In this document: in pieces, positions 1,005-36,412 of the stretch
Position numbering within the stretch: position 1 is the first letter of the stretch
Layout: every line of letters begins with the position of its first letter
Assembly (NCBI GenBank): GCA_964016885.1
Contig: CAXHJY010000593.1
Location: forward strand, 1 to 64,000
DNA: 64,000 nt
Direction of reading: 5' to 3'
Source of the DNA: Eledone cirrhosa
Taxonomy: Eukaryota
Notes under the pieces: generated by a model
Databases searched by the model: none
Seen by the model: the letters and a program-made list of their open reading frames with translations, nothing else
Told to the model about the DNA's origin: nothing
Made by a program: the position numbers and the translations under genes

Positions 1005-1423
1005 ACAATTAAGTTAAAAATGTACATCCATATATGTATACTGAAATACTAGTATGCATATGAATACACACACGTATACATATGTAGATGTACCAAGTCT
1101 TTCACTGGTTACTTTACTGTGAGTATCCAGCTATTCTGTATGTAAACACACAGACAAACCGGTTTTTAGAGTCATACTGGATTTTGAGGAAACACCTTTC
1201 CTCTATTCTCCAGAAAGCCATACAAGGAATAATGAACTAGTTTCGTTGTTGTTACAACTCATCAGCAATATTTACCTATCTACCGGCCTTTCTGGAGAAT
1301 CGTAAAAGCACATATCGTTATATGCTTTTTCTATGAAAATTAGTAGTGGGCAGACTAATTTGCATAGAGTGTGAGTATGTACCGGTTCAACGGAGACGAT
1401 AAAAACAAATAACGAAACAAAAT
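1005..1423 (-). mobile_element. Solitary Penelope-like pseudo-LTR remnant carrying a hammerhead motif
   Basis: Non-coding island between TA arrays containing a minimal type-I hammerhead; the PLE assignment is inferred from the known PLE-hammerhead association. Confidence 0.55.
1228..1272 (-). ncRNA. Minimal type-I hammerhead ribozyme (canonical core)
   Basis: Minus strand AAUAUUG-CUGAUGA-GUUGU(AACA)ACAAC-GAAA-CUAG-UU/CAUUAUU: stem I 6 of 7 bp, stem II 5 bp, palindromic stem III ACUAGU, predicted cut between 1235 and 1234. Confidence 0.85.
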
Positions 1424-2060
1424 TATATGTATATATATATATGTATATATATATATGTATATATATATATATATGTATATATATATATATGTATATATGT
1501 ATATATATATATGTATATGTATATATATGTATATATGTATATATATATATGTATATATATATATATGTATATATATGTATATATATATATATGTATATAT
1601 ATGTATATATATATATATGTATATATATGTATATATATATATATGTATATATATATATATATGTATATATATATATATATATATATATATATATATATAT
1701 ATATATATATGTATATATATATATATATATATATATATATATATATATATATATATATATGTATATATATATGTATATATATATGTATATATATATATAT
1801 ACATATATATATATATATATATATGTATATATATATGTATATATATATATATATATATATATATATATATATATATATATATATGTATATATATATATAT
1901 ATATATGTATATATATATGTATATATATATATATGTATATATATATGTATATATATATGTATATATATATATATGTATATATATATATATATATACATAT
2001 ATATATATATACATATATATATACATATATATATACATATATATATATATACATATATAT

Positions 2061-2482
2061 ACCCCTTAGCCCCGGGAGAGATGACCCCTTAGCCTTTGTC
2101 AAGGCAGAATTCTAGGAGAAGGAAAACTCTGATATAACACCTGCAACCCTGATGGTATCCAATGATGTTGACTTGTTCTTCTTTTTGGTAAATATCATCT
2201 TGGTTAAGAGAGTGGGACTGGCTTTGTGCAGTGCCTTTGCTCACTATAAAAGCTTCACGGCACAGGCATTGCTTTATATCTGGAGATCTCTCTGCATTTG
2301 TCGTCACATGGTACCATGGGCCCAGCACTATGTGTCAATAATTGTCACAAGTGTAGTGTTTGTACCAGAGCTTTCAAGTCGCTGGCTGGACTAAAAAGTC
2401 ACACTCGTTCAGCGCATCAGTAGGGGTTCTCCTACATGGATATAAAGTAGTGGCCGTACTCGAAAACGAGTTGGCAGCCACC
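2061..2482 (+). mobile_element. 5'-truncated copy of the 605-bp non-coding TA-inserted retroposon
   Basis: Near-identical to the 3' two-thirds of 17199-17803 and 34071-34677; same 3' end GCAGCCACC followed by (AT)n. Confidence 0.85.
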
Positions 2483-3980
2483 ATATGTATATATATATAT
2501 ATATATGTATATATATATATATATATGTATATATATATATATATATGTATATATATATATATATATGTATATATATATGTATATATATATATATATATAT
2601 GTATATATATATATATATATGTATATATATATATATATATGTATATATATATATATATATGTATATATATATATATATATGTATATATATATATGTATGT
2701 ATATATATATATATGTATATATATATATATATATGTATATATATATATATATATGTATATATATATATATATATGTATATATATATATATATATGTATAT
2801 ATATATATATGTATATATATATATATGTATATATATATATATATATGTATATATATATATATATATATGTATATATATATATATATGTATATATATATAT
2901 ATATATGTATATATATATATATATATATATGTATATATATATATATATATGTATATATATATATGTATATATATGTATATATGTATATATATATATATGT
3001 ATATATATATATATGTATATATATGTATATATGTATATATATATATATATATATATATGTATATATATATATATATATGTATATATATATATATGTATAT
3101 ATATGTATATATGTATATATATATATATGTATATATATGTATATATATATATATGTATATATATATATATGTATATATATATATATGTATATATATATAT
3201 ATGTATATATATATATATGTATATATATATATATATATATATATATATGTATATATATATATATGTATATATAAATATGTATATATATATATGTATGTAT
3301 ATATAAATATGTATATATATATATGTATGTATATATAAATATGTATATATATATATACATATGTATATATATATATACATGTATATATATGTATATATAT
3401 ATATGTATATATATATACATATGTATATATATATGTATATATATATATGTATATATATATATGTATATATATATATGTATATATATATATATGTATATAT
3501 ATATGTATATATATATATGTATATATATATATGTATATATATATATGTATATATATATATATGTATATATATATATGTATATATATATATGTATATATAT
3601 GTATATATATGTATGTATATATATGTATATATATATATGTATATATATGTATGTATATATATGTATATATATATTTATATGTATATATATATATGTATAT
3701 ATATATATGTATGTATATATATGTATGTATATATATGTATGTATATATATATATGTATATATATATATGTATATATATATATGTATGTATATATATATAT
3801 GTATATATATATATATATATGTATATATATATATGTATATATATATATATATGTATATATATATATGTATATATATATATATATGTATATATATATATGT
3901 ATATATATATATATGTATATATATATATGTATATATATATATATGTATATATATATATGTATATATATATATATACATAT

Positions 3981-4212
3981 GAAGGCGTGTGGCTGAGTGG
4001 TTAGAGAATTGTATTTTTTATCGTAAGGTTGTGAGTTCGATTCCTGGACCAGGCGATGCGTTATGTCCTTGAGCAAGACACTTTATTTCACGTTGCTCCT
4101 TCTACCTGGAGTTGCGACCGACAGATAGTATTAGCAATTGGAAAGACCAACGGAAACATTGTTCCCTCGGTCCGATTTGACAAAAAAGTCGATCGTTAAA
4201 AAAAAAAAAAAA
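3981..4212 (+). mobile_element. tRNA-derived CORE-type SINE with poly(A) tail
   Basis: Box A TGGCTGAGTGG, box B GTTCGATTCC, CORE-like GTCCTTGAGCAAGACACTT, A-tail; second copy at 34825-35050 (-). Confidence 0.85.
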
Positions 4213-34824: not shown

Positions 34825-35050
34825 TTTTTGAGGAACGATCGACTTTGTTGTCAAATCGGACCGAGGGAACAATGTTTCCGTTGGTCTTTCCAATTGCTAA
34901 TACTATCTATCGGTCGCAACTCCAGGTAGAAGGAGCAACGTGAAATAAAGTGTCTTGCTCAAGGACATAACGCATCGCCTGGTCCAGGAATCGAACTCAC
35001 AACCTTACGATTGCGAATACAATTCTCTAACCACTCAGCCACACGCCTTC
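34825..35050 (-). mobile_element. tRNA-CORE SINE (same family as 3981-4212)
   Basis: Near-identical reverse complement; ends GATCGTTCCTC followed by A5. Confidence 0.85.
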
Positions 35051-35148
35051 ACTATATGTATATATGTATATGTATATATTGTATATATATATGTATATAT
35101 ATATTGTATATATATATATGTATATATATGTATATATGTATAAAGTGT

Positions 35149-35262
35149 CAGACAGTCCTATGCGAGCAAGACAATCACTCTTGCCTCAAGTGGGACTACC
35201 CCCGTCCAAACCCATGCAAGCGTGGAACACGGACGTTAAACGTTGATGATGATGATGATGAT
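35149..35262 (+). mobile_element. RTE family A extreme 3' end
   Basis: Matches ~22370-22477. Confidence 0.85.
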
Positions 35263-36111
35263 GTATATATGTATATGTATATATATATATGTATATGTAT
35301 ATATATATATGTATATATGTATATATATATGTATATGTATGTATATGTATATGTATGTATATGTATATATGTATATATATATGTATATATATGTATATAT
35401 GTATATGTATATATATGTATATATGTATATGTATATGTATATATGTATATGTATATATATATATATGTATATGTATATATGTATATGTATATATATGTAT
35501 ATGTATATATATATATATGTATATATATATGTATATATATAGACATATATGTATATATATATATGTATATATATATATGTATATATATATGTATATATAG
35601 ATATATATGTATATATATATGTATATATAGATATCTGTATATATAGATATATATGTATATATATATGTATATATAGATATCTGTTTATATAGATATATAT
35701 GTATATATATATATGTATATATAGATATCTGTATATATATATGTATATATATATATGTATATATAGATATATATGTATATATAGATATGTATATATTGAT
35801 ATATATGTATATATATATTGTGTGTGTGTATATATATATATGTATATATATTGTGTGTGTGTATATATATATATATATATATATATATATATATATATAT
35901 ATATGTATATATATTGTGTGTGTGTATATATATATATGTATATATATATATATATATATATATATATATTGTGTGTGTGTATATATATATATGTATATAT
36001 ATATATATATATATATATATATATATATATATATATATATATATATATATTAGAAAGTGAGGTTTTTTTTACACAATGAAAAATAACCGAGGTGTCCTAC
36101 ACGAGTGGAAG

Positions 36112-36412
36112 TATAAAGAAAAAGGGATGAAATCGAAAATGCAACTGAAGTCTTATTTTTTAAAAAAAATATATATTTATTTGGTTCCTTTACCGGTTTC
36201 GCAGTTCTTCTGCTTTTCAAAAGGTGAGTTGAGATGGAGGGTCTGTGGTTTTTCTCACATCTGATGTGAGAAAAACCACAGACCCTCCATCTCAACTCAC
36301 CTTTTGAAAAGCAGAAGAACTGCGAAACCGGTAAAGGAACCAAATAAATATATATTTTTTTTAAAAAATAAGACTTCAGTTGCATTTTCGATTTCATCCC
36401 TTTTTCTTTATA
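36112..36412. repeat. Perfect 301-bp palindrome (150-bp arms, 1-nt spacer at 36262) built from a PLE pseudo-LTR
   Basis: Arms checked by eye as exact reverse complements; the minus-strand copy extends to 36050; similar to 8885-8940 of the Neptune element. Confidence 0.93.
36300..36337 (+). ncRNA. Minimal type-I hammerhead, U3-A8 core variant (mirror copy at 36187-36224, -)
   Basis: CCUU-UUGAAAA-GCAG(AAGAA)CUGC-GAAA-CCGG-UA/AAGG: stem I 4 bp, stem II 4 bp, palindromic stem III ACCGGU. Confidence 0.78.

Follow-up and report, generated by a model that had tools for sequence, protein, structure and literature searches.

Hammerhead-bearing Penelope-like elements and a retrozyme in TA repeats of Eledone cirrhosa, with a two-ended insertion rule in their genomic copies

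Introduction

The hammerhead ribozymes (HHRs) of Penelope-like elements (PLEs), the retrozymes, and the targeting of TA repeats are already published, and they are the closest described systems for the DNA considered here. This DNA, called the window, is a stretch of 64,000 nucleotides (nt) from Eledone cirrhosa (assembly GCA_964016885.1, contig CAXHJY010000593.1, positions 1 to 64,000 of the forward strand), which forms the start of its contig (C620) in a genome of 3.0 Gb. Between its (TA)n arrays lie six insertions with HHR motifs or variants of them, each from a different family (A to F).

The minimal HHRs of metazoan PLEs (Cervera and de la Pena 2014, PMC4209133; statements on cited work refer throughout to excerpts of the sources) occupy the same position in the pseudo-long terminal repeat (pLTR) as the motifs described below. 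They also share the U3-A8 covariation, the extra base between positions 9 and 10.1 and the palindromic stem III, and they too are mostly single motifs from truncated copies, with opposite-strand pairs 100-700 bp apart. Unlike them, families B and F are fixed for altered cores, A13C in the former and U4A+A6U in the latter. The Hydra and Neptune PLEs with a C-terminal endonuclease (EN+; Craig et al. 2021, PMC8557442) share with the present families a reverse transcriptase (RT) joined to GIY-YIG, the HHR, (TA)n targeting, an inverted 5' copy and a tail that is often at one end only. The tail is 30-40 bp there and 38-69 nt here, and its restriction to one end, frequent there, is near-strict here. 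The origin of PLE tandem and inverted structures and of the tails is called undefined in the same paper. In vitro, the lizard PLE Anolis Poseidon (Frangieh et al. 2024, PMC11167929) acts on an AT-rich target, cutting and extending both of its strands, and two internal RT start sites delimit the tail. Its protein is a predicted dimer, HHR cleavage was not needed for insertion, and no strand difference was seen in bulk. The Poseidon start sites lie inside the open reading frame (ORF) and were not paired per insertion, whereas families B and C have theirs upstream of the ATG and target (TA)n.

Animal non-LTR retrozymes (Cervera and de la Pena 2020, PMC7229834; Li, Clavereau and Pollet 2026 preprint, bioRxiv 10.64898/2026.07.22.740005) are, like family A, AT-rich, structured, tandem and non-coding, with one type-I HHR per unit. 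The unit of 465-470 nt exceeds the 170-400 nt of PMC7229834 and falls inside the 51-972 bp range of the preprint. Both sources propose PLEs as the mobilising partner, arguing from co-occurrence and pLTR phylogeny; in PMC7229834, PLEs are named merely as candidate movers, and the model drawn there has the PLE machinery copy a retrozyme circle by rolling circle, while the preprint favours local amplification. In contrast to these arguments, the arrays described here are two-armed and carry the PLE end signature.

Hammerhead motifs in the window

The motifs are probably the pLTR hammerheads of five autonomous TA-targeting PLE families (B to F) and of one non-autonomous tandem retrozyme (A), inserted by a proposed two-primer mechanism. 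An earlier note, made from the window's sequence, had listed eight HHR sites, and motifs or variants were found at seven. Type-I folds whose core is canonical or of the U3-A8 form, and whose stem III is palindromic or nearly so, stand, as that note had said, at 1228, 22577, 24540, 36187 and 36300. Three descriptor tiers (strict, relaxed and one core mismatch), written after the sites had been viewed, were run on the 25 islands between the TA arrays. The strict tier gave two matches and none in 200 of 200 dinucleotide shuffles; the relaxed tier gave five, against a shuffle mean of 0.02 and a maximum of 1 (200 shuffles). The one-mismatch tier gave five matches, one of which, at 20941 within a Tc1-like element, is likely chance, against a mean of 0.43 and a maximum of 2 (30 shuffles). 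The shuffles, a control that the note had proposed, did not reproduce the match density. Over 37.5-64 kb of the window the type-I descriptor gave no match.

Two of the sites are variants. The fold at 8900-8936 (+) passes only the one-mismatch tier, with GCAA in place of GAAA, and it cannot be called ORF-less since a GIY-YIG ORF ends about 955 nt before it. The motif at 11899-11934 (-), reported as degenerate, passes no tier (two mismatches would be needed); still present are stem II, GAAA, a palindromic stem III and a stem I of 3 bp, and the motif is located inside a PLE pLTR. A second supposedly degenerate site, at 27890-27920 (-), was rejected: it reads the 3' tail of the 24540 family in antisense, lacks stem II and carries a C3.A8 mismatch. 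The type-I core (C3UGANG8A..GAAA..UH or the U3-A8 form; residue numbers follow hammerhead numbering) with stems I-III is present in A, C, D and E, and no intact core was found in B, F or at 27890. The motifs occupy six of the 25 islands rather than almost every non-coding one, and each is on the sense strand of its element, within the pLTR.

Rfam backed the 1228 site (Hammerhead_HH9, 30.1 bits, E 1.1e-5, under the gathering score of 52) and gave no HHR support at 24540 and 22577. No HHR was among the best 150 of 617 matches in a whole-window scan, where TA repeats dominate, or among matches at the gathering score on eight family loci, and aligning the sites by sequence alone gave no information. 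Because copies within one family mutate neutrally, sister families linked by flanking homology were compared for covariation. The stems differ and still pair: with the core kept, compensatory changes separate A from the L176 type (stem II U-A to A-U; H17 U to C), E from B (stems I and II) and D from the L055 type (stem II), a handful of events that carry no formal statistic. Uncatalogued HHR elements are numerous in this genome; in a scan of 202 loci, the flanking DNA (L002-L202) holds many more HHR families, with stem III TATGTA, TGCGCA, CGCG, CATG and others.

One proximal and one distal end

In every family the 3' ends fall at two fixed positions, a proximal and a distal one, which lie 38-69 nt apart and adjoin (TA)n; TA follows 242 of the 279 ends that were classified as either. 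Insertions were kept when they were head-to-head, consisted of family sequence over at least 90% of their length and switched strand once, and 83 of 86 candidates remained, three being dropped for coverage below 0.9. One proximal end is combined with one distal end in 77 of these 83 single-inversion insertions. One has two distal ends, none has two proximal ends, and five have an off-site end, which gives 77/78 for the rule when off-site ends are set aside. One F locus was counted twice in this set and some loci are also in the reference library. The queries for C and F favoured the distal end; without these two families (that is, in A, B, D and E), the rule holds in 63/64. A second set of family A insertions contains 23 two-armed cases, of which 22 obey it; this count leaves aside 8 one-armed insertions and another 8 that the fetch edge truncated.

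The window's own family E insertion is an example. It is a single head-to-head insertion of a Neptune-like PLE pLTR (36050..36411, both arms) whose left arm ends at the distal site and whose right arm ends at the proximal site. Its two HHRs, both with the U3-A8 core, lie at 36187-36224 (-) in the left arm and at 36300-36337 (+) in the right; both are sound as motifs and belong to one inverted insertion, not to the two separate sites previously listed.

Most inversions are asymmetric and the longer arm may be either one, which disfavours a simple fold-back. Non-consensus variants are common to the arms of the same insertion 3-12 times more often than to the arms of different insertions. A hairpin in every tail was considered and rejected, with only the tails of A and C (2/6) folding better than shuffles. 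The one-of-each rule was not found in print in literature searches that covered mostly papers outside subscription.

A mechanism can be proposed from these copies. The PLE protein would make a cut in each strand of a TA tract, and the two target 3' ends so formed would then prime reverse transcription, one at each fixed start site. The two cDNAs would be joined where each is 5'-truncated, in many cases at a short palindrome. Joined two-cDNA insertions would account for the opposite-strand HHR pairs, and 5' truncation for the solitary pLTR islands. In the case of family A, HHR dimers would cleave and ligate the RNA into a circle of ~467 nt, and rolling-circle copying of it by the same two-primer machinery would give two-armed arrays. 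A bolder proposal, to which we give an even chance, is that the genomic copies are a fossil record of a dimeric RT-endonuclease that primes both strands of a cut TA tract, with one of two fixed RNA sites invariably serving each strand. It would likewise turn the circular RNA made by a retrozyme's ribozyme, in a single event, into two-armed arrays as long as 9 kb, and the autonomous families would spread without the catalytic core.

Family A, a retrozyme in two-armed arrays

Family A appears, from its repeat structure, to be the only true retrozyme of the six families, and it is young. The window holds a partial unit (~0.9) of this 465-470-nt non-LTR retrozyme at 1006..1420 (-), which ends at the proximal 3' site in (TA)n. 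The HHR at 1228..1272 (-) has a canonical core, stem III CTAG and H17=U; stem I has one mismatch in this copy and is a perfect 7-bp stem in others. There are 5,201 exact matches of a 30-mer from the motif in the genome (control 0). The best matches are 98-99% identical, with a tandem period of 465-470 nt and no ORF, and the monomer folds much better than its shuffles do (z -7.3). Tandem non-coding units, each with a type-I HHR, were found in 32 arrays (207 full units in all, up to 20 in one array).

Units within an array are nearly identical, with 0.31 differences per unit pair, compared to 9.1 between array consensuses. In five two-armed arrays, private variants are present in every unit of both arms. 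For example, array L223 has 18 identical full units (6 + 12 per arm), three private variants in all of them, and proximal and distal ends, and array L224-L225 has 20 units with three private variants. Such homogeneous two-armed arrays would match, as expected, what rolling-circle copying of one circle would leave. There is no pile-up of 5' ends at the predicted HHR cut, where 1 of 54 lies (7 of the 54 are unit-boundary artefacts). No two-armed retrozyme arrays obeying the PLE end rule were found in literature searches, which covered papers without their supplements. A-to-I editing of the template as a source of the array-private variants found no support (5 A>G against 2 T>C, p 0.21). Reads of four sequencing runs aligned to an A array gave high depth and A>G/T>C differences, which DNA copy number and private variants of the reference would produce as well.

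The octamer ATGCAAAT occurs at 1358-1365 (-) and also at locus L057, 100 nt upstream of the family A HHR core; it is found again 88 nt upstream of the HHR core in a second tandem HHR family, with a unit of 391 nt (locus L043). We take it to resemble the snRNA-type (small nuclear RNA) promoter of newt satellite 2.

Families B to F, autonomous elements

The other five families are pLTRs of autonomous PLEs, mostly seen as 5'-truncated ends and present in thousands of copies each. That several different HHR-bearing PLE or retrozyme families had inserted in TA repeats was foreseen in the earlier note, and six were found. The same note had suggested that they are mostly ORF-less derivatives, and this does not hold, with five of the six being 5'-truncated ends of autonomous PLEs whose copies elsewhere reach GIY-YIG/RT ORFs. 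The genome-wide comparison it had recommended found ORFs for B to F and tandem arrays for A. A PLE RT with C-terminal GIY-YIG on the pLTR strand was recognised by Pfam (RVT_1 and/or GIY-YIG) in B, D, E and F and by motifs in C, and the EN+ PLE structure (pLTR, tandem or inverted copies, tail) is present in all five. The distance from the predicted cut to the element boundary, given earlier as ~100-270 nt, falls in a similar range, about 78-263 nt with boundaries placed by eye.

Family B is represented by a 5'-truncated Neptune-like PLE with an RT-thumb/GIY-YIG ORF and a pLTR (6665..9063, +), and a short inverted 5' piece can be read from the sequence at ~6665-6780. The ORF fragment (6953..7945, +) has a CX4CxxC linker and GIY-YIG (PF01541, E 9e-7), and the HHR (8900..8936, +) has a U3-A8 core with A13C (GCAA). 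Among 6,294 genomic matches to the motif, the first 100 include 98 with GCAA, one with GAAA and one with GGAA. Copies continue into the GIY-YIG/RT ORF at 18/30 loci, and the tandem unit is 4,805 nt. Full-length copies (L181, L182) also contain a 455-aa open frame that has no Pfam match and overlaps the RT frame, as in PLEs with a frameshifted ORF1.

Family E is the sister of B and keeps GAAA. It has 11,632 exact 27-mer matches in the genome (control 0); copies continue into an ORF at 1/30 loci, and a 770-aa RT-GIY-YIG ORF is present at locus L183. The Neptune motifs (GxKF, DKG and a CX2-5CxxC linker) are found in B and E, and only the linker in D, a tentative assignment by motifs and not by a tree; family F was given no clade.

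Family D is an end of a GIY-YIG ORF with the pLTR of a Neptune-like PLE (24390..24890, -) and ends at the proximal 3' site. Its HHR (24540..24582, -) has a canonical core with an extra base between A9 and G10.1. Genome-wide there are 2,746 candidates, with a GIY-YIG ORF upstream at 24/30 loci. A short inverted fragment of D lies at 27793..27950 (+), antisense over 27793-27862, sense from 27866 onwards and ending at the distal site; joining the 24.4-kb and 27.9-kb pieces as one insertion was rejected (coverage 0.19).

Family C is the pLTR of a Hydra-clade PLE (22482..22745, -) that ends at the distal 3' site, and its HHR (22577..22636, -) has a canonical core and long stems I and II. This subfamily has a C10.1.A11.1 mismatch where a sister subfamily has U-A. 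There are 3,727 search candidates genome-wide, and the pLTR continues into an ORF with RWK, DKT and CxCX5C in 40 scored junction matches and at 20/20 fetched loci; the ORF had no match in Pfam. Compared to PMC8557442, C has the Hydra-clade features (RWK, DKT, the CxCX5C linker and the (TA)n target), again by motifs and not by a tree.

Family F is the pLTR of a C-terminal-EN PLE (11639..12021, -) and ends at the distal 3' site. The HHR-like motif (11899..11934, -) has the core CAGUUGA (U4A, A6U) and an extra base before stem II. The motif has 2,682 matches, and among the first 100 there are 92 with the CAGUUGA core and none with a canonical one; an ORF lies upstream at 8/30 loci.

B and F are two young, high-copy families fixed for altered cores. 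Changes to the HHR core generally lower activity, and some natural core variants retain low activity (PMC3088659). HHR cleavage is probably dispensable or relaxed in the autonomous families because B and F reached thousands of copies with altered cores. No literature on A13C was found, and the altered cores of B and F were not found in searches that covered papers without supplementary variant lists.

Weighing of the alternatives

Chance matches in AT-rich DNA can hardly explain the motifs. The loosest tier does yield 0.43 matches per shuffle, the B and F sites fail the stricter tiers, 27890 was a false call, and Rfam backs a single site. However, the relaxed tier gives five matches where shuffles average 0.02, and an HHR scan of 677 kb of fetched loci gave 274 matches compared to 3, 3 and 8 in shuffles (the loci had been fetched with these families); all motifs are sense-strand in a pLTR, and sister families covary. 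As for the end rule, it is quite unlikely that one primed cDNA folding back and copying itself, or an endonuclease trimming one end, produces it in place of two priming events. In favour of such a route, the tail is ascribed to EN-mediated resolution in PMC8557442, and 10 family B inverted pairs, chosen for equal spacing, are all joined at one short palindrome about which they are perfectly symmetric. Against it, most inversions are asymmetric, with the longer arm on either side, and both tail boundaries were mapped in vitro as RT start sites (PMC11167929).

It is unlikely, in our view, that the family A arrays reached their length once inserted, through local tandem amplification or unequal crossing-over, or came from uncleaved linear multimers with no circle involved. 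This route is proposed in the preprint (bioRxiv 10.64898/2026.07.22.740005), where 8/9 frog retrozyme dimers remained uncleaved in vitro. Against it, the same private variants and the same array-specific period recur in both opposed arms, each of which ends exactly at the proximal or the distal site, and a linear template would need up to 13 consecutive uncut canonical HHRs. Several points nevertheless weigh against the main reading, some of which also favour the route without a circle. Array L046 has position-specific variants that better fit a linear multimeric template, and in arrays L224, L283, L284 and L292 variants are in only some units. Gene conversion, local tandem amplification or assembly polishing could also spread variants among arms and units, and many A arrays were found through similarity to one subfamily. 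No partner PLE of A was found among the B-F sequences, where the only match was a simple-repeat-like one of 37 nt, and the clade labels of the PLE families rest on motifs, not a tree. With regard to the altered cores, it is rather unlikely that in B and F the PLE protein or a partner HHR rescues what would then be active variants instead of relaxed remnants. Their stems and palindromic stem III are still intact, the lizard HHR is protein-assisted (PMC11167929), and the low activity of some natural variants would fit. On the other side are the usual loss of activity on core changes, the retention of GAAA in the sister family E, and long copies of B or F, in which no second sense-strand HHR was found.

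The locus and its neighbours

Dinucleotide microsatellite makes up 38% of the bases over 1-37.3 kb of the window compared to 1.5% further on, and the 25 islands between the TA arrays hold 22,640 nt of non-TA sequence in all. Most of them are long interspersed nuclear elements (LINEs) with AP (apurinic/apyrimidinic) endonuclease and RT, LINE 3' tails, a Tc1-like DDE element and short repeated elements. The HHR families had been thought to converge on this one locus, and a comparison of density argues otherwise. Flanking 175 copies elsewhere, there are 92 HHR motifs of other families in 581 kb, or 15.8 per 100 kb, compared to 16.1 per 100 kb here, a figure that counts HHR-family insertions and is thus not strictly in the unit of the motif count. 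Nothing sets the locus apart, its HHR density being typical of copies elsewhere, and the HHR families likely accumulate wherever TA microsatellites are long.

Among the neighbours, the LINE ORFs at 13931-16912 (-) and 26106-27833 (-) have a PHD-finger match directly after the RT domain. Two opposed LINE 3' tails with a short TA tract between them form a ~300-bp inverted repeat at 13203-13850, and a Tc1/mariner-like element with terminal inverted repeats (20851-21723) is inserted within a TA array. A ~600-nt non-coding element is present in three copies, 96% identical and each flanked by TA arrays (2069-2476, 17205-17797 and 34078-34675), and the HHR descriptor gave no match in them. There was also no match in the 3987/34829/28140 family, in the LINE tails at 11061, 13203 and 35147, or in the islands at 36650-36852 and 36929-37311, to which no element name is attached.

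Implications

The motifs themselves are expected. The value of the locus lies in the mechanistic record left in the genomic copies and in the two altered cores. The near-strict end rule in six families, including a retrozyme, and the homogeneous arrays lead to precise predictions for the in vitro PLE system. The sister pair of B, with an altered core, and E, with an intact one, suits the question of whether PLE hammerheads must cut. If the proposed reading is true, cleavage would matter to the parasite, the retrozyme, and not to its carrier, the PLE.

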